64,000 nucleotides of DNA from Candidatus Doudnabacteria bacterium RIFCSPHIGHO2_02_FULL_42_25 (GTDB taxonomy: Bacteria > Patescibacteriota > Doudnabacteria > UBA920 > O2-02-FULL-48-8). The position numbers and the translations under genes were made by a program. This document shows, one piece after another, positions 1,387 to 51,496 of this stretch; position 1 is the first letter of the stretch, and each line of letters begins with the position of its first letter. The DNA lies in contig MFEQ01000004.1 of NCBI GenBank assembly GCA_001777665.1, positions 10 through 64,009 of the forward strand. Direction: 5' to 3'. The notes beneath the pieces are model-generated. The model saw only the letters and a list, made by a program, of their open reading frames with translations. It had not been told where the DNA came from and searched no databases.

Positions 1387-2478
1387 TTATTTTCCGGATT
1401 TAGTTCGATTGTCTAATTTACATAACATCTGGCAGTTTTGTGCAATTGTCTTACCACCTTCGTGCCAAGGAGTGATATGATCCGCTTCCATTTCTTCGAT
1501 ATCATAATGCTTCTTGCATTTTGGACAAATTTCATCTTGCCGCTCATAAGCCTCGCGCTTCATTTTGTCAGTAAAGGCCCGGATATTAAGATATTTTTCT
1601 TGTCTTGTAAGCACGTAGGGATATATGCCGGATTTTTTCGTCACATCTTCATCTTGCATGAGATTCTTGATTTCAACTTCTAGCTTTTTTGGATCAAGTT
1701 TCTTATCTTTGAATTCATTATACAACTCGCCCCAATTCACCACCGCCATCTCGTTTCGATAATTCGGAAACGTTTTTCGCACCCACGCAACCACGTCTTG
1801 AAAATATCCCCACAGTTCGTCAGCATTTTTATCTTTCTGATGATTCGCCATATAATCCGCGATCTCGCCGTTGTTTATCCACGAAAGTGCTGTTTCCAAA
1901 TACTCCTGTCGAATTGGCGTGCCGTTTACTAATTTTCCACCATCATTTGCCAAGCGATATGCTACGCAATTTGATTTACTAAATTTCATTTTTGCGTCGC
2001 TTAACCATGGACCAGTGTAAACAGCATTACGGATTTCCTGATCATTCACCTTCTCGCCATAAGTATTAATAATAGTGAACCAGTCTATTCGCTCCTTATC
2101 AGTCCCTTCGCAAAAATAAACCATAAGTTCGTAATCCAAAATCTCGTCCTGTTCCTCTTTGGTTAAATTATGGAAAAAACGATCGTTCAGAGAAAAATCA
2201 CCCGTAACATATTGTCCGATACTAATGGTGCGCTGTTGACCATCTAACACTTCATATCCGCCGTCGTCCCTAATCATCCAGTACATCACATTTAGCGGGA
2301 AGCCGCTTTTGATAGTTTCGATCACTGCTTTGCTTTGTTCTGGCTTGTATACAAACTCACGCTGATATTTGGGCCGAATATCCAATTTGCCACCATAAGC
2401 AACCACGCCTTCTTCAGCGCTATCTTTATAACCCTTAACTATTTCACGAATTGCAATTTTATGCGGTTCAATTTTCAT
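1387..2478 (-). CDS. DUF262 (ParB-like nuclease, DGQQR motif) fused to C-terminal HNH endonuclease; GmrSD-like
   Basis: VLDGQQRTISI near N-term; C-term CPKCKK...DHITPWHEGG...NCQMLC HNH/zinc finger. Confidence 0.6.
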   Translation of the reverse strand: MKIEPHKIAIREIVKGYKDSAEEGVVAYGGKLDIRPKYQREFVYKPEQSKAVIETIKSGFPLNVMYWMIRDDGGYEVLDGQQRTISIGQYVTGDFSLNDRFFHNLTKEEQDEILDYELMVYFCEGTDKERIDWFTIINTYGEKVNDQEIRNAVYTGPWLSDAKMKFSKSNCVAYRLANDGGKLVNGTPIRQEYLETALSWINNGEIADYMANHQKDKNADELWGYFQDVVAWVRKTFPNYRNEMAVVNWGELYNEFKDKKLDPKKLEVEIKNLMQDEDVTKKSGIYPYVLTRQEKYLNIRAFTDKMKREAYERQDEICPKCKKHYDIEEMEADHITPWHEGGKTIAQNCQMLCKLDNRTKSGK

Positions 2479-2513
2479 ACTAATTTTCTTAATATTTAAA
2501 TGTAACTATTTTT

Positions 2514-3620
2514 TCACTTCTTATTTTTTATGATGATTCTCATATAAATAAACCTGAATCGATTTCCTTCTTTAACTATAGGACTACCATTTAAATCATT
2601 AAAATTATCACCGTCTTCTTTGGTATAGATCTTTATCTTTAAATTATACGGATCATTTCTATGCGTTAATCCAATTATCTCAAACTGTTCGGGGCTATAT
2701 TTATTCAAAAAAGTGATCGGCACACCTATTGCGCCATAATAATCCGTAGGGATATCGGAAACTTTCGAAACCTCTATTGCATCGTAATTATCGTATTTTG
2801 GAAATTCTTCTGAGGTGTATTTTTTATAAAGATCAAGCTTTTCATGTCGTTTCTCCGTATCAAGGTTTGTGTACCAATTGACAGCTGGGACTTTTACATA
2901 TCCATCATTTGGATTATATCCTTTCCCTTTAACAAACTGCTTGTTGGCTTCAAGGTTGTTGTTATAAGGTGTCTTATATACCATTGACATATTAAAACCG
3001 TAACCAGACCACAATTTATTTTGTTTTATTAATCCGAAAACATCTTTATACGTAATAGCGTTCATGTTCCCTAAAATCAAAAACTTTTTATCGTGTTCAA
3101 CAAGCTGAGCTAGGTATTCACGAAAAAGAGAAAATGGTGGATTAGTGACGACGATGTCGGCTTCTTTGAGTAGTTCGATACATTCAGCGCTTCGGAAATC
3201 ACCAGAGCCTTTTAGCGGAGTGGCAACATTAGCATCGTTTTTAAGCAACCATTCTACATCAGATAAACCAACGGAACCGTCGGCGTCTGCATCTGGGACT
3301 TTATTTATTTCTATCTTTAATGGCTGTTTGCCTTTTGATCCAGCCACTTGGAGCAACGGCAACTGACCGCCAACAATTGGCGAACCGCTATAACTCGTGG
3401 TAATGAGCTTCTTGAGCTTTAATTCGTTGAATTTAGAAGCGAAATATTTAAAAAAATTGCTTTCAAATGGATCATCGCAATTACAATATACAACTTTGCC
3501 GCGAAATTGATCTTTGTAGTGCTTCAGCTCTTTTTCAATATCAACTAACTGAGTATAAAACTCATCTTTTTTGGCCTGGCTTGCCTTATGTAAATTTTTA
3601 TTTGATGATTTTTTTTCCAT
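2514..3620 (-). CDS. N6-adenine methyltransferase (gamma-class-like), probably DNA
   Basis: N-terminal DEFYTQ (FxTP-like motif X) and catalytic IVVTNPPFS (motif IV); starts 10 bp after secA stop. Confidence 0.55.
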   Translation of the reverse strand: MEKKSSNKNLHKASQAKKDEFYTQLVDIEKELKHYKDQFRGKVVYCNCDDPFESNFFKYFASKFNELKLKKLITTSYSGSPIVGGQLPLLQVAGSKGKQPLKIEINKVPDADADGSVGLSDVEWLLKNDANVATPLKGSGDFRSAECIELLKEADIVVTNPPFSLFREYLAQLVEHDKKFLILGNMNAITYKDVFGLIKQNKLWSGYGFNMSMVYKTPYNNNLEANKQFVKGKGYNPNDGYVKVPAVNWYTNLDTEKRHEKLDLYKKYTSEEFPKYDNYDAIEVSKVSDIPTDYYGAIGVPITFLNKYSPEQFEIIGLTHRNDPYNLKIKIYTKEDGDNFNDLNGSPIVKEGNRFRFIYMRIIIKNKK

Positions 3621-3629
3621 AAATGCAAA

Positions 3630-6248
3630 TCAAACACCACCTTGCTTCTTGACAAGATTATTTTTATGCTCTTCAGTATTCAATAGCCCGCATTTCTTCC
3701 ATTTTTTACCACTACCGCAGGGGCAGGGGTCGTTGCGGCCGATTTCTGATCCTTGATCATTGTTACGTGTTACGGGGCTTACAGGCTGAGGAGTGACGTC
3801 GACTCGGAAAATTGTGTACGCGACTTGTCGATTTATTTCATCGAGTAATCTGCCAAATATTTCAAACCCTTCGTTTTTGAATTCGTGTAGTGGATCGCGT
3901 TGGCCGTATCCTCGGAGTCTCACTGAATCACGTAAATGCTCCATGGTGTCCAGATGTTCTTGCCAGAGGACATCGATGGCTCTGAGATAAACCACTCGCT
4001 CTAACTGACGCATCACTGGTGCTCCTAGTTTTTGCTCTTTCTTCTCGTACTCTCGCATCGCGAGATTGACGAAGTGTTGAGTCAGAACTTCCTGATCCAG
4101 GGATTTATTTTCATCCACATCGTGTTGCAGTGGGACTATGGTTCCGATTTCATGAAAAATCTTGTGGGAATCAACTTGTTCTTGGGCTAAACCAAAGTTT
4201 ACTATGTTCGTAATTTCTTTTACTAACATATCTTTAATTTGAGCACTTAGATCGGTTTGGGGATCGAGAGATTGTTTACGCTTACCATAAATAACCGTGC
4301 GCTGTTTATTCATGACATCGTCATATTCCAACACATGTTTTCTCATGTCGAAGTTTAACCCTTCAATCTTTTTCTGCGCTGATTCGATGGATTTGGAAAT
4401 TAACGCAGCTTCAATTGGTTGATCTTCAGGAATACCCAAAGTCTCCATCATCTTCCCTACCCGATCTCCGCCGAACAATCTCATCAGATCATCTTCGAGG
4501 GACAAGAAAAATTGCGAAGAACCAGGATCGCCCTGTCGGCCAGAACGTCCTCGCAACTGATTGTCGATACGTCTGGATTCATGACGTTCAGTTCCGATAA
4601 CTGCAAGACCTCCTAATTCTTTCACACGAGCTTGTTCCTCCGGATCTGCCGGGTTTCCACCCAAAATAATGTCGACTCCTCGACCTGCAATGTTTGTAGC
4701 TAGGGTTACTGACCCCAAACGCCCTGCTTGAGCGATTATATGGGCTTCACGCTCGTTATTCTTCGCATTTAGGAGCTCATGAGGCACTCCGGCTTGCTTG
4801 AGCAATTGCGACAATAATTCGTTCTTTTCGATAGATATAGTACCAATCAGAATAGGTCGCCCAGTTGAGTGGATTTCCTTAATGGCGCGAACTAGGGCCG
4901 TGAATTTTCCTTTTACGTTTTTGTAAACTTGATCCGGCAAATCTTTTCTGATCATCGGTCGGTGTGTCGGGATCAATACTACTTCGAGGTTATAAATTTT
5001 ATGAAATTCTTCGGCTTCGGTTTCAGCAGTACCAGTCATACCGGCCAATTTTTTGTACAAACGGAAATAGTTCTGGAAAGTGATGGTAGCGAGAGTTTTA
5101 CTTTCTTGCTGAACTTTCACACCTTCTTTGGCTTCGATGGCTTGGTGCAAGCCTTCAGAATATCGACGGCCAAACATCAGACGCCCGGTAAATTCATCGA
5201 CTATAACTACTTCCCCTTCTCGAACGACGTAATTGATGTCTTTTTTAAATAAAGTTTTGGCACGGAGTGCGGCATCAGCTTGATGTCGAAGTTTAGGATC
5301 ATTATAAATCGCATCACCGTACTTTTTTTCTAATTTCACATTGCCTTTTTCAGAGAAAGCGACCTGCTTTTTCTTTTCATCTACAACGTAATCATCAGGG
5401 CTAAGTGAAGTAATGACTTTTGCAAACTCAGAATACATATCTGTCGAATCAGTATCAGGGGCGGAAATGATGAGCGGGGTTCTAGCTTCATCAATCAAAA
5501 TCGAGTCGACTTCGTCTACGATAGCATAGTGCAAATCTCGTTGTGACATTTGATTCGGATCCCAGACCATGTTGTCGCGCAAATAATCAAACCCATATTC
5601 GTTATTTGTGCCATAAGTGATATCAGAAGCATATGCTTGTCTTCGTGGCACTGGGCGCATATGTTTGACGTCCAGGACCAATCCTTGCACTCCGGCTTCA
5701 ATCTGTTTGATTTCTTCTTCTTCTGGTTTGAAAGTCGGGTCATAGATAAACGACTGCTCGTGTTGGATCGAAGCAACTGACATTCCCAAGTAGTGATAAA
5801 TCTGGCCCATCCAAGAAGCCTGCCATCTGGAGAGATAATCGTTAACTGTGACCAGATGCACTCCTCGGCCAGTTAGAGCGTTAAGGTATAGCGGAAGTGT
5901 AGCAACCAAAGTTTTTCCTTCTCCAGTTCTCATTTCAGCGATAGCGCCAGTGTGAAGCACCATGCCACCGATTAGCTGCACATCATAGTGGCGCTGACCA
6001 ATGGTTCGTTTTGATGCTTCTCTCACCGCTGCAAAAGCTTGAGGTAATAATTCTTCCAATTTGGCTTTTTGCTGATCTAAATCCAAACTCGCCAACTGTG
6101 CTTTCCATTTAACAGTTAGTGCTTTGAGATCGTCTTGTGATTTGGATTCAAATTCTTTTTCCAGGGAGTTGATTTCATCAACTTTTTTCTGGAGTCGTTT
6201 GACTACAGCCTGGTTCGAATCTGAAAATAAATTACTAAAAAATGCCAT
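3630..6248 (-). CDS. secA: Preprotein translocase ATPase SecA
   Basis: 872 aa; DEAD-like motor, C-terminal CPCGSGKKWKKC zinc-binding tail. Confidence 0.95.
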   Translation of the reverse strand: MAFFSNLFSDSNQAVVKRLQKKVDEINSLEKEFESKSQDDLKALTVKWKAQLASLDLDQQKAKLEELLPQAFAAVREASKRTIGQRHYDVQLIGGMVLHTGAIAEMRTGEGKTLVATLPLYLNALTGRGVHLVTVNDYLSRWQASWMGQIYHYLGMSVASIQHEQSFIYDPTFKPEEEEIKQIEAGVQGLVLDVKHMRPVPRRQAYASDITYGTNNEYGFDYLRDNMVWDPNQMSQRDLHYAIVDEVDSILIDEARTPLIISAPDTDSTDMYSEFAKVITSLSPDDYVVDEKKKQVAFSEKGNVKLEKKYGDAIYNDPKLRHQADAALRAKTLFKKDINYVVREGEVVIVDEFTGRLMFGRRYSEGLHQAIEAKEGVKVQQESKTLATITFQNYFRLYKKLAGMTGTAETEAEEFHKIYNLEVVLIPTHRPMIRKDLPDQVYKNVKGKFTALVRAIKEIHSTGRPILIGTISIEKNELLSQLLKQAGVPHELLNAKNNEREAHIIAQAGRLGSVTLATNIAGRGVDIILGGNPADPEEQARVKELGGLAVIGTERHESRRIDNQLRGRSGRQGDPGSSQFFLSLEDDLMRLFGGDRVGKMMETLGIPEDQPIEAALISKSIESAQKKIEGLNFDMRKHVLEYDDVMNKQRTVIYGKRKQSLDPQTDLSAQIKDMLVKEITNIVNFGLAQEQVDSHKIFHEIGTIVPLQHDVDENKSLDQEVLTQHFVNLAMREYEKKEQKLGAPVMRQLERVVYLRAIDVLWQEHLDTMEHLRDSVRLRGYGQRDPLHEFKNEGFEIFGRLLDEINRQVAYTIFRVDVTPQPVSPVTRNNDQGSEIGRNDPCPCGSGKKWKKCGLLNTEEHKNNLVKKQGGV

Positions 6249-6255
6249 ATAATCC

Positions 6256-6292
6256 GGCTACGAACTTACGAATAAATACGAAAGTACGAAAA
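6256..6292. repeat. TACGAA direct-repeat array (left arm), inverted relative to 6689-6726
   Basis: cTACGAAcTTACGAAtaaaTACGAAagTACGAAaat. Confidence 0.55.
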
Positions 6293-6688
6293 TTAGTTAA
6301 TATTTAATATTCTACGAAATTTCACACCCTCTCTTGTAAAATTTGCTAAGATACCAAGCTTCAAATCGTTTGCTTTAAGATATGCCACCACTTGCTCGAT
6401 ATTTTTCTTTGAAAAGGGCTTATCTTTCTTAATTTCAATTGCTATCTTGGATTCGACAACAAAATCTATATAATATCTACCGATTGATTCACCTTTGTAC
6501 GTTAATGGAACAAATGCTTGTTCTTGAAACTTTATTTTTCTTTTGGCAAATTCTAAAGCCACCGACTTTTGATAATATTTCTCTTGGTAGCCACTCCCTA
6601 GTTCTCTGAACACTTCGATCAAAACTCCGACGATCGCATAACTTAGCTCTGGATACACAAGATCTTGTCTACGAAGACCCGTCTGCAT
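6293..6688 (-). CDS. GxxExxY family protein (PD-(D/E)XK nuclease fold)
   Basis: 131 aa; invariant GxxExxY region (ELGSGYQEKYY), EIK nuclease-like core; flanked by inverted TACGAA repeat arrays. Confidence 0.55.
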   Translation of the reverse strand: MQTGLRRQDLVYPELSYAIVGVLIEVFRELGSGYQEKYYQKSVALEFAKRKIKFQEQAFVPLTYKGESIGRYYIDFVVESKIAIEIKKDKPFSKKNIEQVVAYLKANDLKLGILANFTREGVKFRRILNIN

Positions 6689-6726
6689 TTTTTCGTATTT
6701 TCGTAATATTTAGTACTTTCGTAGCC
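6689..6726. repeat. TACGAA repeat array (right arm, inverted)
   Basis: ttttcgtattttcgtaatatttagtactttcgtagcc. Confidence 0.55.
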
Positions 6727-6808
6727 GTCCTATTATACAAAAACCCGGGCAAAAAGAAAAGGCCGAACTTCTGTGCGTCCGACCACGTGATTGCCTTCCA
6801 CGGACCGA

Positions 6809-15401: not shown

Positions 15402-15799
15402 TGGTGTAACTCCGCAGTTGTTCCCCTCCCTGGAAGGGAGGGGTTAGGGGAGGGTCGAAGAGCTAACTTAAGCGTTAGGTCTGCAAACACTCCATCTAGG
15501 TTATTGAGAATTTGGGAGTTATCATAACGAATGATTTGATAACCTTTGGATATTAGATATTTCGTTCTGGTTTTATCGTAATCTATTCCTTGTGTTGTAA
15601 AATGCGAATCCCCATCTATTTCGATAATTAGATTTAAGGCTGCACAGTAAAAATCTACTATATAGGGACCTATGTCATGCTGCCGACGAAACTTAAGGTT
15701 ATTAAATTGCTTTGCAGAAACCATAGCCCAAAATACCTTCTCTGCTGGAGTAGAGTTGTGTCTTAATTCTCTTCTTTGCTTTGTTCGAGCTAAAACCAT
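15398..15799 (-). CDS. DUF559 endonuclease-domain protein (Vsr-like fold)
   Basis: GPYIVDFYCAALNLIIEIDGDSH... DUF559 core; C-terminal tail encoded by a CCCCTCCC/GGGAGGGG hairpin. Confidence 0.6.
   Translation of the reverse strand: MVLARTKQRRELRHNSTPAEKVFWAMVSAKQFNNLKFRRQHDIGPYIVDFYCAALNLIIEIDGDSHFTTQGIDYDKTRTKYLISKGYQIIRYDNSQILNNLDGVFADLTLKLALRPSPNPSLPGRGTTAELHQ
15423..15443. repeat. GC-rich hairpin CCCCTCCC-TGGA-AGGGAGGGG (family flanking DUF559 genes)
   Basis: Related hairpins at 15826-15846, 25566-25589, 40372-40392, 40804-40824, 40887-40907. Confidence 0.5.
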
Positions 15800-15859
15800 G
15801 TTAACCCTTTACGCTCCTCCCCCAGCCCCTCCTCAAAGAGGAGGGGTGAAACTGCGAGA

Positions 15860-22321: not shown

Positions 22322-23269
22322 TTACGTGTTACGTGATCCGTGATACGTGGCCAATAATCTTTCAATCTCTTCGACTGATTTCGCGCCCAATCCTTCCACA
22401 GTCATCAGTTGTTCGTGTGTCATGGCTGACAGTTGAGAAATCTTATTGATCTCATTCTTAAGCAAAGCATTGTACGATCGGTTGGAAAGTCCGAGGGATT
22501 TCAAATCATCTTCTTCTGGGGTGCGCAGTCCTTCTTCGACTGCAACATCCATAACTGGAGCTTCCATTTCACTGGCAGCTTGCAAATTATTTTTACCAAG
22601 CAATGCGAAGTGATCCATCAAAATTACTGCAGCTTGGTCAATAGCATCTTTACCTGTGATCGTGCCGTCAGTTTCAATAGTCAAAATCAATTCATCATAG
22701 TTGGTGATTTGGCCAACACGGACATTGTTAATGTCATAATTCACGGTTCGGACTGGGGTGTAGATGGCATCCACAGCAATCATTCCGATTTCCAATTTCT
22801 CATTCTCACGTTGTTCTACAGGAACGTAGCCACGTCCAGCTTGGACGACAACTTCCATGTCCAAATCCGCACTCTTGTTGTCGAGAGTGGCGATGTGAAG
22901 ATCTGGATTGACGATTTCGACTTCTGAATTCTTTTTAAAATCAGCACCGGTTACGGCTTTCTCCCCTTTAACTTTGAGTTCTAATCTTACCTGGCCTTCT
23001 GAATGAATTTTCAAACGCAACTGTTTGAGATTTAAAATAATTTCGATCACATCTTCTTTGACATTTGGGATAGTGGAAAATTCATGATCTACACCTTTGA
23101 TCTTCACAGCGACCACAGCAGCTCCTGGAAGTGAAGACAACATAACTCGGCGAAGACTATTGCCCAGGGTTACCCCATAACCTGGATATAGAGGCTCCAT
23201 AACAACCTTGTATTTATTATCGCTTAGATCTTCGAATAAAACTTTTTTTGGTAATGGAATATTTTCCAT
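22322..23269 (-). CDS. rpoA: DNA-directed RNA polymerase subunit alpha
   Basis: 315 aa; NTD GNSLRRVMLSSLPGAAV; C-terminal 9 codons overlap a CACGTAA tandem repeat. Confidence 0.9.
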   Translation of the reverse strand: MENIPLPKKVLFEDLSDNKYKVVMEPLYPGYGVTLGNSLRRVMLSSLPGAAVVAVKIKGVDHEFSTIPNVKEDVIEIILNLKQLRLKIHSEGQVRLELKVKGEKAVTGADFKKNSEVEIVNPDLHIATLDNKSADLDMEVVVQAGRGYVPVEQRENEKLEIGMIAVDAIYTPVRTVNYDINNVRVGQITNYDELILTIETDGTITGKDAIDQAAVILMDHFALLGKNNLQAASEMEAPVMDVAVEEGLRTPEEDDLKSLGLSNRSYNALLKNEINKISQLSAMTHEQLMTVEGLGAKSVEEIERLLATYHGSRNT

Positions 23270-23305
23270 AAATTTAGATTAAAGATTAATGATTTAAGAT
23301 TAAAG

Positions 23306-23914
23306 TTACCTAGAGTAATACTCAACAATTAACTGCGTATTGAGTGAGCTGTCGAGCTGATCTTTGGAAGGTTTGGACAAAACCTTACCGGATAAATTCT
23401 TTGGCTCCAGAGACAACCATTCTACTGTTTTGTAATTAGCCAAGCCTTGAGCCATGGTTTTGATATATGAGGAATTCTTCTTTCCCTCTAAAATTTTAAT
23501 CTCGTCGCCGACTCGGACTTGATAAGAAGGAATATTGACTCGTTTGCCATTAACTTCAAAAAATCCGTGAGAAACGATTTGTCTGGCTTGTGGTCGAGTT
23601 TGAGCAAATCCCATTCGGAAAACGATGTTGTCTAATCGAAATTCGAGCATTTGGAGCAAAGCGTCTCCGGTTACTCCAACTTTTTTAGTAGCAGTTTCGT
23701 AATATCTGCGGAATTGCTTTTCCATCACGCCATAAATAATTTTGGCTTTTTGCTTTTCTCGAAGTTGCATACCGAATTCAGAGACACGCTGTGGATTTTG
23801 TCCATGTTGTCCTGGTCGATAATTTCGCTTCGCCAAATACTTTTCAGCTTTCTTAGTTAAAGCTATGCCGAATTTGCGAGATTGTTTAATTTTGGGTCCG
23901 GTATGACGTGCCAT
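23306..23914 (-). CDS. rpsD: 30S ribosomal protein S4
   Basis: MARHTGPKIKQSRKFG... Confidence 0.9.
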   Translation of the reverse strand: MARHTGPKIKQSRKFGIALTKKAEKYLAKRNYRPGQHGQNPQRVSEFGMQLREKQKAKIIYGVMEKQFRRYYETATKKVGVTGDALLQMLEFRLDNIVFRMGFAQTRPQARQIVSHGFFEVNGKRVNIPSYQVRVGDEIKILEGKKNSSYIKTMAQGLANYKTVEWLSLEPKNLSGKVLSKPSKDQLDSSLNTQLIVEYYSR

Positions 23915-44875: not shown

Positions 44876-45802
44876 TTAGTCCCTTAATCCATGGCCCGTT
44901 AGTTTCAAAAAGACATCTTCCAAAGTCGGCTGATGAAGTTGTAAGTCTACTAATTTTACTCCTGCTTCTCTGCTCAATTTAAATAAATCGGATAACGTCG
45001 CTTCAGAATTATCTGTAGTTAATCGATAAGTATGATCTTCAGACTGAACAGAAGTAACCCCTGTTATTGCTTTTAGTTGTTCTATATCCAAAGGCTTATC
45101 CACCAAAAAATGAATAGACGTTGACAAACCAGGCAATTTCAAAAGATTTTGTGTAGTATCGAGAGCTATAATGTGAGCATGGTCCATGACCGCAATTCGA
45201 TCACATAAAATCTCTGCTTCATCCATATAGTGGGTTGTCAGGACGACGGTTTTTCCTTTTTTGTTAATCTCTGTAATCAATTCCCAAAGATTACGTCTGG
45301 CTTGAGGATCTAGGCCCGTGGTTGGCTCATCCAAAAATAAAACTTTCGGATCATTGACTAGAGCAGCAGCTATAGAAAATCTCTGCTTCTGTCCACCAGA
45401 TAATTCTTTGTGCTGAGATTTTGCTTTTTCCTCGAGTTGGACTTCACGCAGCAATTCCATGGCATCAACTTTGCGGTTATAAAGAGCGCCGAAAGTTTCC
45501 AATAATTCTAATAAATTTAATCCTTCGAAAAACGAAGACGACTGCAACTGCACTCCAATCAACGATTTTACAGTTCGAGTATCTTTGCTGACATCGTGCC
45601 CATCCAAAAAGGCCTGGCCAGATGTTATACCCTTCAGCCCTTCAATCATTTCTAGCGTAGTAGTCTTCCCTGCTCCATTTGGCCCGAGAATACCAAAAAC
45701 CTCACCTTCATTAACCTCGAAGCTGATATTATCAACGGCAGTTAATCCGCCAGCTGGCGGACCGTATTTTTTCTTTAAATTTTTGACTTCAATAATTGCC
45801 AC
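44876..45802 (-). CDS. ABC transporter ATP-binding protein
   Basis: Walker A GPNGAGKTT, signature LSGGQKQR, Walker B LFLDEPTTGLD. Confidence 0.85.
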   Translation of the reverse strand: MAIIEVKNLKKKYGPPAGGLTAVDNISFEVNEGEVFGILGPNGAGKTTTLEMIEGLKGITSGQAFLDGHDVSKDTRTVKSLIGVQLQSSSFFEGLNLLELLETFGALYNRKVDAMELLREVQLEEKAKSQHKELSGGQKQRFSIAAALVNDPKVLFLDEPTTGLDPQARRNLWELITEINKKGKTVVLTTHYMDEAEILCDRIAVMDHAHIIALDTTQNLLKLPGLSTSIHFLVDKPLDIEQLKAITGVTSVQSEDHTYRLTTDNSEATLSDLFKLSREAGVKLVDLQLHQPTLEDVFLKLTGHGLRD

Positions 45803-45876
45803 AGTTAAATATTATAGCGTATTTTGGAACGCCTGTCAAAGCCGAGTTCTTATTACTATTTACTACTTACTAGTTA

Positions 45877-47595
45877 CTAATTTATTATTTCACCGGCTGG
45901 AAAACCATCAACATCGCCTTGTGGTAAGATAGTCGGTTTCGGATACCTCGCCCGTTTGTATGACGCGGCAGTGTACATGCGCTTCAAACCATTTTCCATT
46001 TTATATATGGCGGAAGACTGATCGCCTTTGATCACTGTCCCATCGCGAGGTGGGAACAAACCTCCATTCGGAATGGCCATTAACTCCTCCGAGGAAACTG
46101 TCAACAGTGGGAAGAATCCAACCCCTCGTTGCTTCCAGACAAAAGCCGTCACTCCTCTTCGAGAATTGTCACGGAACCACCAAATCGTTGGGTCATCCGG
46201 AGTTTTCAGAGCGACCATATTAGGCGGTGTTAGAAACGGTCCAGATGCCATAGAAGACACTTCAACATCGGACAGTTTCATAATTTTCCCGAAAGAATAT
46301 TTACGAGCAACAAATACAGCACCTGATATTGGTCGTTTTAATCCGGTATCAATAATATATACCGTGGGATTCGTCTCACTCATGATCAGGGTTCCATCTG
46401 TTGGAGTTTCATAACTACCGGTCGCATATGAATCGACTTCGGCTTGGGGTAGTATCATCACGTTGCTAGCTAACAATTTTCGTTGGGCGAATACTGGGGC
46501 AGAAATGGGATGCTTTACTCCATCGCCAATTACATACGTTGTCGCATCGATATCACCTTTGAGCAAAGTGCCCTCAAGGGGAACCATTTGTTTTTCAGTT
46601 GGATATGAATCAAATTCTGTTTGGGAGACAATTATTACATTTGCAGTTTTGATGCCCCTCTGTCCCGCTACAAATGCAGAGAACGGCCGCTTCGTGCCAT
46701 TATCTATGACATACTGTTGAATGTCGCCAACACGGATAATAACTGTTCCATTCGGGTATTTAAACCAAGTGGAATAAAATTTCCAAAAATTATAATTGCC
46801 ATTGTAGACGTGAGGGGTATATCGATAAAGCGCAGCCGTCGCGTAATTGCCCAAAGTTACTGTTTGCTGTTGTTGGACTCCACTATAACCATTCAAAGTA
46901 TTATCAAGCGTAATACTATCGCCCACTCTGGCGGTTCGGACTACAGGACGGCCATAGGTCGTATTTTGGGCATCTACCATAGGTCCGCGGCCGACTCGAG
47001 CACCACCAACTTCAGCTCTAAATGAGCGCATCAAGGAAGCTGCAGCGCCTAGCCATCGATTACCTTCTCCGTCGAAAGTTCCAAATAGTTGTCGATAGAA
47101 ACCTAGGAAAATATCGCCGCAACCTTCGTAATCAGGACAGCCAAATCCTAACGAACGATCAAGCGCTCTTTGCAAACTACTGTCAGAATTAAAAGTTCCA
47201 GCAATTAAACTTTGTTCTTTTTGCAAAATTACTAAGATGACTTGAGGATTTAGCCCCCACTTCGCACCGGCATCGTAAATTAGCTCTGCGGCTGTACGCA
47301 GTCTGGTTAGGTTTGGTTGTGGATCTTCAAGCCCGACTTTCGTCAATGTATCTGCTTCTTTGAGTTTGATTAAAAATTCCGGAGTGGTATTGGCTAACAC
47401 TGAACCCTTTAATTCCAAAAAGCTCTGAATTCCCGCAGCGGAACCAAACGTTCCGACATCAGCAAATGCTTCGTCAGGAATAATCAATCCGGGATTAAAT
47501 GCAGAATCAGGCACCGCTTGAGCTAACGCTTGCAGGGGTGAAAATCCAATTTCCAGGCTCCAAAACACAATTAGCAACCATTTGATATTTTTCAT
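45877..47595 (-). CDS. Secreted protein: N-terminal putative cell-wall/glycan hydrolase-like domain + five ~55-aa repeats
   Basis: Signal peptide; repeats of form DGTLIxxxxDPTVYxIDxGxKRPIS..VF...Y.F..V..L..AEV. Confidence 0.45.
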   Translation of the reverse strand: MKNIKWLLIVFWSLEIGFSPLQALAQAVPDSAFNPGLIIPDEAFADVGTFGSAAGIQSFLELKGSVLANTTPEFLIKLKEADTLTKVGLEDPQPNLTRLRTAAELIYDAGAKWGLNPQVILVILQKEQSLIAGTFNSDSSLQRALDRSLGFGCPDYEGCGDIFLGFYRQLFGTFDGEGNRWLGAAASLMRSFRAEVGGARVGRGPMVDAQNTTYGRPVVRTARVGDSITLDNTLNGYSGVQQQQTVTLGNYATAALYRYTPHVYNGNYNFWKFYSTWFKYPNGTVIIRVGDIQQYVIDNGTKRPFSAFVAGQRGIKTANVIIVSQTEFDSYPTEKQMVPLEGTLLKGDIDATTYVIGDGVKHPISAPVFAQRKLLASNVMILPQAEVDSYATGSYETPTDGTLIMSETNPTVYIIDTGLKRPISGAVFVARKYSFGKIMKLSDVEVSSMASGPFLTPPNMVALKTPDDPTIWWFRDNSRRGVTAFVWKQRGVGFFPLLTVSSEELMAIPNGGLFPPRDGTVIKGDQSSAIYKMENGLKRMYTAASYKRARYPKPTILPQGDVDGFPAGEIIN

Positions 47596-50388: not shown

Positions 50389-51402
50389 TTATTTTGTTTC
50401 GAATTCGCGTTGTTTTTCCACCAATAACTTCTGATGCCAGGCCCAGGCAGTTTTTATGATTGTTTCGACATCAGAATAGATAGGGTTAAATCCCAATTCA
50501 GTTTGGATTTTGGTGGGATCTGCGACTAAAACTGCTGGATCCCCTGGCCGTCTGGGTGAATACTCAATCGGGATCATTCGCTTTGTCACCTCAACACAGG
50601 TGTTCACGATTTCATTTACTGATCGGCCCTTACCAGTACCGACATTGTAAGCAAATACGCCTTGGTCAGAATCTAATTTATGCAAAGCGAGATTATGTGC
50701 TGTCGCTAAATCTTCCACATGAATATAATCTCTGACGCATGTTCCATCAAAAGTGGGATAGTCGTTGCCAAAAATCTTTAAGACTTCTTGCTGCTTGGCT
50801 GCAACCTGTAAAATTTTCGGGATCAAATGTGATTCGACTGGATGACTCTCGCCGATTCTTGCATCCGTGCTGCCACCGCAGGCATTAAAATATCGGAGGC
50901 TGATCGAGGACAGCCCAAACGCTTCGTGGTACCACTTCAATATTTTTTCAAACACCAGTTTCGTTTCACCATATGGGTTGACGGGTTTTTTGGGATGCTC
51001 TTCGTCAATCGGAACATAATGTGGCTCACCGTAAATGGCTGCACTGGATGAGTAAACCAATTTCGTGACTTTGTGGCTGACCATGGCATCGAGTAAATTT
51101 CGGCCGTTATTGACGTTGTTATCAAAATATCGATTCGGGAACAAAACTGATTCTTCAACTATGATTGAGTTGGCAAAATGGATTACAGAATCGATTTCAT
51201 GATCATCAAAAATTTTATCAAGGAGTTTTTTATCAGATAAATCCCCGACTATCAACTGACAATTAATTGCGTTGGAATGCCCGGCCGAGAGATTATCAAG
51301 GACGATAACCTCTTTCCCGATGGATTGCAATAATTTCACGGTGTGGGAACCGATGTAGCCCGCACCACCAGTAACTAAAATTTTCTGCTTTGGGGAATCC
51401 AT
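50389..51402 (-). CDS. galE: UDP-glucose 4-epimerase / NAD-dependent epimerase
   Basis: VTGGAGYIGSH Rossmann, YxxxK active-site region; 337 aa. Confidence 0.75.
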   Translation of the reverse strand: MDSPKQKILVTGGAGYIGSHTVKLLQSIGKEVIVLDNLSAGHSNAINCQLIVGDLSDKKLLDKIFDDHEIDSVIHFANSIIVEESVLFPNRYFDNNVNNGRNLLDAMVSHKVTKLVYSSSAAIYGEPHYVPIDEEHPKKPVNPYGETKLVFEKILKWYHEAFGLSSISLRYFNACGGSTDARIGESHPVESHLIPKILQVAAKQQEVLKIFGNDYPTFDGTCVRDYIHVEDLATAHNLALHKLDSDQGVFAYNVGTGKGRSVNEIVNTCVEVTKRMIPIEYSPRRPGDPAVLVADPTKIQTELGFNPIYSDVETIIKTAWAWHQKLLVEKQREFETK

Positions 51403-51409
51403 AGTTTAT

Positions 51410-51496
51410 CTACGAAATTACGAATCTTTTACGAAAATACGAAAAGGGTTCTCTCTTGTTCGTACTTTCGTAACCTTTCGTAATTCGTAGACGAAC
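51410..51496. repeat. Gene-less palindrome of inverted TACGAA arrays (19-bp centre), immediately upstream of galE ATG
   Basis: ctacgaaattacgaatcttttacgaaaatacgaaaag ...centre... cgtactttcgtaacctttcgtaattcgtagacgaac. Confidence 0.55.

Follow-up and report, generated by a model that had tools for sequence, protein, structure and literature searches.

A GxxExxY nuclease gene nested in inverted hexamer arrays upstream of secA in a Doudnabacteria genome: a possible compact selfish element

Comparison with described repeat systems

REPIN/RAYT systems combine doublets of REP sequences with a REP-associated tyrosine transposase (Nunvar 2010, Bertels & Rainey 2011, Ton-Hoang 2012). The locus described here lies in a window (the whole stretch of DNA that was analysed) of 64,000 nucleotides and consists of a GxxExxY gene enclosed by inverted arrays of short repeats. 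As in REPIN/RAYT, one gene is flanked by inverted short repeats, gene-less inverted doublets are dispersed between genes, several repeat families can coexist in a genome (in REPIN/RAYT each with its cognate gene, typically in single copy, and here perhaps likewise), and residence is long-term and largely vertical. The differences concern the enzyme, which here is a 131-aa PD-(D/E)XK nuclease and there an HUH/Y1 transposase of the IS200/IS605 type, and the arms, which here consist of 3–4 tandem hexamers and there of one imperfect palindrome of 20–30 nt; moreover, the gene is nested to the nucleotide between arms whose pairing is not under selection.

Insertion sequences and their MITE derivatives (e.g. 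the Correia elements of Neisseria) share with this locus the discrete unit with terminal inverted repeats in unrelated contexts, the short gene-less multicopy derivatives, and a position beside or within transcription units with which they are co-transcribed. Unlike these, the present element lacks a recombinase of the DDE, HUH, serine or tyrosine class, a target-site duplication could not be detected, and its terminal inverted repeats are built from sub-repeats. At about 470 bp it is smaller than any autonomous insertion sequence known to us. Free-standing homing endonuclease genes, among them that of the PD-(D/E)XK enzyme I-Ssp6803I and the seg and mob genes of phage T4, are likewise small nuclease genes, patchily distributed between conserved housekeeping genes, and spread is expected to rely on break repair in both cases. 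In contrast to these genes, the element brings inverted repeat arms of its own along to new sites; its flanks are repeated gene-less through the genome, and an apparent target stays unoccupied beside the gene.

Two further systems resemble the arrays as such. Enterobacterial REP/BIME sequences are also palindromes in intra-operon gaps, transcribed and with potential effects on mRNA stability and translation, but in our case the hexamer and its spacing are conserved and not the stem, and a dedicated gene is nested within. Iteron-type operators of ribbon-helix-helix proteins (omega of pSM19035, the met-boxes of MetJ, ParR/parC) are made of tandem 7–9-bp units, direct or inverted, with strict spacing and free spacer sequence, as here. 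However, the present arrays have no such DNA-binding protein linked to them, they move with the nuclease gene, and their type varies within one genome. By this comparison the element is close in logic to REPIN/RAYT or to MITE/IS and is a member of neither, because its enzyme class differs, its arms are arrays and target-site duplications are absent. Literature searches on the array motifs, GxxExxY, PF13366 and MITE or REPIN sequences of Patescibacteria returned nothing relevant; going by the literature available to us, GxxExxY genes have not been described in association with repeat-array palindromes before.

The loci upstream of secA and galE

The features of the two loci are given in Table 1; GxxExxY, secA and the other genes concerned are all encoded on the minus strand.

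Table 1. Positions of the features at the secA and galE loci (numbering of the window; arms named in the orientation of the GxxExxY gene).
Feature	Position	Strand	Description
Whole element	6255..6727	-	CGGC, T arm, GxxExxY ORF, R arm, GCCG; 473 bp
T arm (upstream arm)	6692..6723	-	TACGAA-AG-TACTAA-ATAT-TACGAA-AA-TACGAA; 3 nt, then ORF ATG
GxxExxY gene	6293..6688	-	131 aa, PD-(D/E)XK fold; E36, D75, E85, K87 intact
R arm (downstream arm)	6259..6290	-	TTCGTA-CT-TTCGTA-TTTA-TTCGTA-AG-TTCGTA; stop codon + 2 nt before, secA ATG 10 nt after
Extended -10 box TGTATAAT	6732..6739	-	Directly upstream of the element, 4 nt before CGGC; read from the sequence
Intrinsic-terminator-like hairpin of the upstream gene	6761..6784	-	Kept in relatives (cggccttttcttttt)
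secA	3630..6248	-	Downstream host gene; transcription must cross the element
Gene-less palindrome	51410..51490	-	C, (TACGAA)x4, 15-bp centre, (TTCGTA)x4, G; ~7–8 nt before galE-like ATG
NAD-dependent epimerase (galE-like) gene	50389..51402	-	Downstream of the gene-less palindrome

The sequence-only reading had placed the 131-aa ORF inside inverted TACGAA arrays, and this description holds. On the plus strand TACGAA is found at 6259, 6267, 6277 and 6285 (spacing 8, 10, 8), and TTCGTA at 6692, 6700 and 6718 together with a one-mismatch TTAGTA at 6710 (again 8, 10, 8), which makes four hexamers per arm with the ORF fitting exactly between the arms. At the second locus TACGAA occurs at 51411, 51419, 51430 and 51438, and TTCGTA at 51459, 51467, 51477 and 51484. 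The inverted arrays reported for this site are thus present, but the centre between the inner hexamers is 15 bp; the 19 bp given before includes flanking A/T. The palindrome ends extend to CGGC...GCCG on the secA side and to C...G on the galE side. The outer arm does end 7–9 bp before a start codon at both loci, as had been stated: TTCGTAG is followed by 9 nt and the ATG of secA (equivalently, GCCG by six nt and ATG), and by 7 nt and the ATG of the galE-like gene. The two copies differ in their spacers and are not near-identical. In total the window holds 55 TACGAA hexamers compared with 32.4±5.9 in shuffled sequences (55 was reached in 0 of 100 shuffles), and the excess is due entirely to the secA-side and galE-side clusters. 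A TACGAA palindrome lies unoccupied 45 kb from a resident gene of TACGAA type, within the same 64 kb. The galE site is not orthologous with two epimerase sites that are occupied in other genomes (L139 and L186), since identity is only 27–34%.

The element is located between the -10 box and the ATG of secA. The SecA of the window is 100% identical to a named protein from a metagenome-assembled genome, which places the window in a Candidatus Doudnabacteria genome; this species is represented in at least 48 assemblies. The -10 box TGTATAAT is homologous to a TATAAT found 12–13 nt before secA in element-free relatives, although a strict two-hexamer promoter scan missed it. The hairpin further upstream, conserved in relatives, is a mark of the ancestral region before secA. 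The R arm could in principle act as a sigma-70 promoter, with TTCGTA as -35 and the TAnnTT junction as -10 hexamer. The geometry fits arms of the TACGAA, TACTAA and TACAAA types and fails for the TCCGTA and TTCGTT types, the strict scan gave no promoter, and -10-like enrichment upstream of elements was weak; this reading was not adopted.

The protein encoded by the element matches PF13366 (PDDEXK_3; E = 3e-30, 105.5 bits, cut-off 22) and TIGR04256 (GxxExxY; E = 2e-31, 108.8 bits, cut-off 35), with the family motif at G33-Y-Q-E36-K-Y-Y39. PDDEXK_3 is the sole domain, and no recognised transposase (DDE, HUH/Y1, Ser, Tyr) is present in the element. E36, D75, E85 and K87 do not vary among 82 homologues, whose identity to the window protein is ~55%. 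None of the solved structures matches by sequence; the AF2 model (pLDDT 92.6) has a PD-(D/E)XK fold, and its structural neighbours are generic enzymes of the same fold (lambda exonuclease, Cas4, Hjc, tRNA-splicing endonuclease). A profile search yielded 17,693 GxxExxY cluster representatives at 50% identity, many of which are ~265-aa forms with two domains in tandem. These tandem forms suggest that the protein works at least as a dimer, which would fit paired hexamers. Columns that differ between proteins of TACGAA and TACTAA type were inspected for specificity residues and set aside, since most of them fall in the N-terminus, where the alignment is poor, and phylogeny confounds the difference. 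A 2012 survey of PD-(D/E)XK proteins listed PF13366 as 'Unknown', with multiple transfers (PMC3424549), and a search for more recent papers gave none.

Recurrence of gene and arms as a unit

The association of gene and arrays was assessed from both sides. In a protein-based metagenome scan that was blind to the arrays, 68 unique GxxExxY relatives with complete flanks were recovered. Arrays of at least three hexamers were present on both sides of 45 of these 68 genes compared with 24 of 2000 control windows (~1%), and arrays of at least four hexamers on both sides of 22 compared with 6 of 2000. The median gaps are 2.5 nt from the upstream stop codon to the T arm, 5 nt from the T arm to the ATG, 1 nt from the stop codon to the R arm and 5 nt from the R arm to the next ATG. 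Many other GxxExxY genes, then, carry the flanks seen at secA. A scan for the array pattern, using one genome per species, gave at least 118 loci. Nearly all of them are in Patescibacteria and most are gene-less (among the matches listed); the lineages represented in this list are Saccharibacteria, Uhr-, Moran-, Doudna-, Falkow-, Taylor-, Portnoy- and Liptonbacteria and Peribacteria. The matches listed comprise 72 T...R palindromes, whose centres are mostly 0–56 bp with a minority of 395–474 bp, and 84 single arrays; a GxxExxY ORF is present in only 7 of the pattern-derived loci among them. A phage origin was rejected, as there were no arrays in the viral contigs examined.

The hexamers are of several types (TACGAA, TACTAA, AACGAA/GCGAA, TACAAA, TACGGA and TGCGGA), and both arms of any one element are always of the same type. 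Different types coexist at short distances: in one contig (L131) three consecutive gaps each contain a GxxExxY gene, with arms of a different type in each, and another (L077) has gene-less palindromes of TACGGA, TGCGGA and TACGAA type. Gene-less TTAGTA-type arrays are found in contigs whose GxxExxY gene is of the TACTAA type. Such element-specific types are hard to reconcile with a single host regulator, and would be expected if each nuclease variant reads its own repeat.

We asked what is conserved within the arms. The middle spacers show no complementarity (0.25 compared with 0.33 in shuffles) and the 2-nt spacers a weak excess of it, while deviant hexamers are mirrored in the other arm in only 6 of 106 cases. 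The non-complementary middle spacers and the unmirrored deviants rule out that the arms are kept as a stem; because there is no sign of stem upkeep, the conserved objects are the individual hexamers and their spacing (8-10/11-8). These data bear on the possibility that the arrays work at the RNA level to the benefit of the host, as transcribed intercistronic elements (compare REP and RNase III sites) that tune mRNA stability, processing or translation, with GxxExxY as a trans-acting nuclease or binding protein whose own mRNA is framed by the same signals. The palindromes do lie in co-directional stop-to-ATG gaps (31 of 60 cases among the matches listed) and hence must be transcribed, and the galE palindrome folds as RNA with -39.9 kcal/mol (z = -6.1). 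With the -10 box just upstream of it, the T arm would form the 5' leader of a GxxExxY-secA transcript; in some of the elements the R arm is the better preserved of the two, and tRNA-splicing endonucleases are among the structural neighbours of the protein. However, there is no compensatory change between the arms, matches to Rfam covariance models were all far below the gathering scores, and the E..D..ExK triad is typical of metal-dependent DNases. An RNA-level role would also leave unexplained the indel at secA and the identical units in unrelated contexts described below, and we consider it improbable.

The region upstream of secA was compared with that of relatives. Two Doudnabacteria (L213 and L214), whose SecA is 75% and 72% identical, have kept a homologous terminator (cggccttttctttttggccg) and the TATAAT box, and in these TATAAT-N12/13-ATG leads directly into secA, with neither arms nor gene. 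Since these two sites are element-free, the 473-bp unit is an indel polymorphism between the -10 box and the start codon of secA. Two closer relatives (P0127 and P0132; SecA 82% and 79% identical) have no PDDEXK_3 gene at secA, as judged from gene maps only. A GxxExxY gene without the repeats was not found at secA in any of the relatives. The closest homologues of the window protein (81% and 74% identity) are again encoded upstream of secA, between the same arms of 4+4 hexamers, and a homologue of 66% identity has these arms in a gap between polX and a NUDIX gene. In all three the order is T arm, ATG, stop codon, R arm, with the next ATG 6–10 nt further on.

Some of these results could be taken to mean that GxxExxY is an ordinary, vertically inherited host gene, the T array regulating GxxExxY itself and the R array the next gene, and neither being mobile. 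Its linkage to secA is kept in three Doudnabacteria-like genomes with a divergence similar to that of SecA (80% identity for the nuclease and 74% for SecA), and its catalytic residues are conserved. Yet the distribution of the gene among close relatives at secA is patchy, the R array follows GxxExxY whatever gene lies downstream, pseudogene remnants occur, and outside Patescibacteria the gene is wedged between fabD and fabG or between radA and the gene for an FAD-dependent protein. Near-identical units in unrelated contexts also speak against it. The proteins of three elements (L150, L151 and L184) are 78–93% identical and their neighbouring genes differ; the stretch of DNA that can be aligned runs from (A)ACC/CC-TACGAA to TTCGTA-GG(G), and beyond it the sequences are unrelated. 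In general, among elements at unrelated sites with proteins 74–93% identical, the identity stops exactly at the arm ends. In five further pairs of elements at different sites, the arm spacers and a short terminal extension are common to each pair. An immobile host gene is therefore largely refuted, and we give it very little credence. A target-site duplication was seen neither on comparing the occupied secA site with the empty ones (L213, L214) nor in the three elements with alignable DNA. Pairwise identity between GxxExxY proteins is ~53% regardless of site; identity within sites is 0.59 and between sites 0.53, a contrast too weak to decide on site-specific clades.

Several gene-less copies are present per genome among the matches listed, and there the gene-less palindromes typically take up the entire gap between co-directional genes, at medians of ~6 nt and ~8 nt from the flanking genes. 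The downstream genes in this list are diverse housekeeping genes, 72 of 99 occurring once; GroEL is found five times, SecA and PilC three times each, besides aminoacyl-tRNA synthetases, S7, L1, TIM, FtsH and others. Certain junctions recur, namely groES-groEL (five times), rpsG-fusA (six times) and pilT-pilC. In line with the sequence-only reading, gene-less and gene-bearing versions are related. In one locus (L063) the centre, 248 bp long, is what remains of a GxxExxY gene with a frameshift (E = 5e-15); some of the gene-less palindromes, at the least, are thus derived from gene-bearing ones. In one Uhrbacteria genome (MGEP01) at least four near-identical copies were found (two in L019, one each in L055 and L070), which have the arms, a 28-bp centre and some flank in common; this points to amplification of the repeat itself.

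The gene-less palindromes could also be viewed as the original state. The arrays would then be cis-elements of the host (operators or elements of the 5'-UTR) to which a conserved host factor binds, and GxxExxY a free-standing homing endonuclease with intact palindromes as its cleavage sites; copied into the centre of such a palindrome, the gene would split and thereby immunise the site. This corresponds to the earlier proposal of a shared operator into which the gene has inserted, with galE as the empty site. It would account for the pilT-pilC junction, whose palindrome is empty in L104 and L080 but contains the gene in L092, and for the exact fit of the ORF between the arms. The conservation of hexamer and spacing across phylum-level lineages, the recurrent junctions and the orientation of single arrays, of which 37 point with TTCGTA towards an ATG and 7 do not (among the matches listed), are in line with it too. 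Against it, the unoccupied secA state has no palindrome, the outermost arm sequence and terminal extension move with the gene to unrelated sites, and the three hexamer types in one contig (L131) each have their own gene. Further, a cognate palindrome has stayed unoccupied at a distance of 45 kb from the resident gene, the arms offer only ~32 bp of interrupted homology for repair, and the near-identical copies within one Uhrbacteria genome include their centres. We regard homing into host palindromes as unlikely. As to the earlier proposal, the operator part is weakened by the element-specific hexamer types, with the single-array orientation and the two states of pilT-pilC still in its favour. 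The unoccupied secA sites, which have no arrays at all, speak against a simple empty target site at galE. Because the arms travel with the gene, their type is element-specific and a decayed remnant exists, the galE palindrome is probably not such a site, and gene-less palindromes resemble non-autonomous or decayed derivatives (MITE- or REPIN-like) more than they do an operator of the host into which the gene has intruded.

A selfish-element reading and its extension beyond Patescibacteria

We put the probability at roughly one half that the locus represents a REPIN/RAYT-like or MITE/IS-like selfish system with a nuclease that reads its own repeat arrays. The small selfish nuclease gene proposed by the sequence-only reading is supported by the intact PD-(D/E)XK gene, by the recurrence of the arrangement and by the insertion polymorphism of gene plus arms. 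The segment at secA would be one copy of a compact element, mobile or formerly mobile, composed of a single GxxExxY nuclease gene and terminal inverted repeats of four tandem hexamers each (TACGAA in this lineage); the galE palindrome would be a gene-less member of the same repeat family, non-autonomous or decayed, comparable to the derivatives in MITE/IS and REPIN/RAYT. The nuclease, probably a dimer or higher oligomer, would recognise single hexamers of its cognate arrays and cut at or near arrays or palindromes, after which break repair or recombination by the host may copy or relocate the unit. Survival in the tight gaps of essential operons would depend on co-orientation and on read-through from the upstream promoter, and also on a right end that lies a few nt before the next start codon. 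A Shine-Dalgarno-like TAGG(A/G) is frequent there in many lineages, and this motif together with the 37:7 bias of single arrays suggests that the right end is shaped to preserve expression of the next gene. The array itself as a Shine-Dalgarno substitute was set aside, as the genome of the window seldom uses such sites (13 of 56 genes).

A number of observations count against the selfish-element reading. No target-site duplication was seen, and integration chemistry is not known for the PD-(D/E)XK fold. To our knowledge PD-(D/E)XK enzymes hydrolyse DNA without any strand transfer, and autonomous transposition by one would be biochemically unprecedented. Hexamer and spacing have stayed the same between lineages that separated very deep in the tree, as one would sooner expect of a host protein's binding site than of selfish repeats, which evolve fast. 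The similar divergence of nuclease and SecA in the secA lineage fits long vertical residence and not frequent movement. The pairwise identity of ~53% whatever the site and the unoccupied cognate palindrome beside a resident gene weigh against this reading as well, the single-array bias suggests some host-level function, and the recurrent use of the same operon junctions pulls in the same direction.

GxxExxY genes outside Patescibacteria are also associated with repeats. In Bernardetia the gene, flanked by CACAGAGA arrays, has ade on one side and a mannose-1-phosphate guanylyltransferase gene on the other; in Sphingomonas it splits fabD from fabG and is preceded by three copies of CGCGAAGG. The copies in Treponema, Fusobacteria and Persicobacter are flanked by other repeats, inverted or direct. 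In Bacteroides finegoldii the gene is found between radA and the gene for an FAD-dependent protein, with TTCACCACAGAGGACGCAGAGGACACGGAGGAG and its inverted counterpart as flanks and three 9-mers per arm (inverted arms of three CACAGAGGA). We advance, as a tentative extension, that the GxxExxY family may be the protein half of an unrecognised, phylum-spanning class of selfish elements, with palindromic arrays of TACGAA in Patescibacteria, CACAGAGGA in Bacteroides and CGCGAAGG in Sphingomonas placed in intra-operon gaps. A lone minimal PD-(D/E)XK nuclease would recognise the cognate tandem hexamers or nonamers and drive the copying of itself and of gene-less derivatives, as an analogue of REPIN/RAYT built on a different enzyme. 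At ~470 bp this would be the smallest autonomous element known.

If the selfish-element reading is correct, it would provide the first functional context for a very large protein family of no known function, and an enzyme that is neither HUH nor DDE would join the few proteins by which dispersed repeats are maintained in bacteria. It would also account for the conspicuous intergenic palindromes found within such essential operons as groESL, str, pil, fab and gmd-fcl, both in ultra-small Patescibacteria and in gut Bacteroides. The arrays are likely to mislead gene calling and the assignment of start codons in metagenome-assembled genomes, and could be of use as markers of lineages. Direct tests of the hypothesis are feasible in Bacteroides, a genetically tractable genus. 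The Bacteroides arm is present in 16 Bacteroides records, at up to 7 places per 25 kb and essentially always between genes, and gene-less palindromes with a 10-bp centre are found, for example, in the gmd-fcl gap and in that between dnaN and an exonuclease gene.

Variants and possible variants of the array element and of the GxxExxY protein

Variants of the element, or arrays that may be related to it, were found at several of the loci compared from other genomes and metagenomes. In L131 (2225–4546), a type IV secretion-like cluster contains a GxxExxY gene in each of three successive intergenic gaps, and each gene is flanked by a hexamer type of its own (TACGGA, TACGAA and TGCGGA); the third protein is only 35–38% identical to the other two. 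At L050 (2458–2997) the TACGAA arms enclose a 474-bp centre, which codes on the opposite strand for a Cys-rich protein of 122 aa that is not GxxExxY. This gene is either an alternative cargo or framed by two independent arrays. In six Uhrbacteria loci (L013, L019, L055, L057, L067 and L070) the repeated unit does not stop at the hexamer arms but continues with another array, built of TTAG/CTAA units (for example tggctttagatattagtgcttagggtttag), so that the composite element measures about 150 bp. A MAG labelled Bacteroidetes (L035, 251–532) carries about 37 TACGAA-like units in tandem, compared to four per arm elsewhere.

In Bacteroides finegoldii (L221, 8731–8900) a gene-less CACAGAGGA palindrome lies within the annotated 5' end of a CDS for a 'zinc ribbon domain-containing protein'. 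Because of this repeat, the start codon has probably been misannotated.

In the representative library, tandem two-domain proteins of about 262–277 aa are common among the GxxExxY relatives, and a few relatives (300–480 aa) are fused to other regions. The frequent tandem architecture suggests that GxxExxY would act as an obligate dimer, with occasional domain fusions.

Interior and surroundings of the secA element

The additional TTCGTAG motifs within the GxxExxY ORF of the window (see the table below) fall at codons for L-R-R and F-R-R and are not conserved in L004, one of the compared loci; they may be due to chance or represent vestigial arm units. On the other side of secA, the EcoRI-methylase-like gene and the GmrSD_N/HNH gene, the latter of the modification-dependent restriction type, look like a defence islet adjoining the element.

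Features in and around the secA element and elsewhere in the window
Feature	Position	Strand	Location or flanks
Two additional TTCGTAG motifs (gene orientation)	6313–6318 and 6670–6675		within GxxExxY ORF, near its two coding ends
EcoRI-methylase-like gene, then GmrSD_N + HNH gene	1387–3620	(-)	after secA
DUF559/Vsr-like nuclease-fold gene, 133 aa	15398–15799	(-)	flanks 15402–15455 and 15800–15858
4 TTAATC units, spacing 9–10 nt	23272–23310	(-)	intergenic, immediately upstream of ATG at 23269
4–5 TAGTAA units, period 7 nt	45852–45889	(-)	end of one gene, upstream of GTG at 45802

Other repeats, a second small nuclease-fold gene and translation starts

The DUF559/Vsr-like gene has GC-rich hairpins on both sides, of a type unlike the hexamer arms. 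The upstream hairpin reads CCCCTCCTC-TTT-GAGGAGGGG and the one at the 3' end CCCTCCC..GGGAGGG. Palindrome-framed small endonuclease genes may recur in this genome.

Shine-Dalgarno use is low across the window (13 of the 56 long ORFs), and many genes have a TATAAT-like box just 5–14 nt upstream of the start codon. The proximity of these boxes to the start suggests that leaderless or very short-leader mRNAs are widespread in the window.

The TTAATC array, a further short-repeat array, fills its gap; it consists of one arm only and encloses no gene. The TAGTAA units resemble the TTAGTA hexamer variant but differ from it in period.
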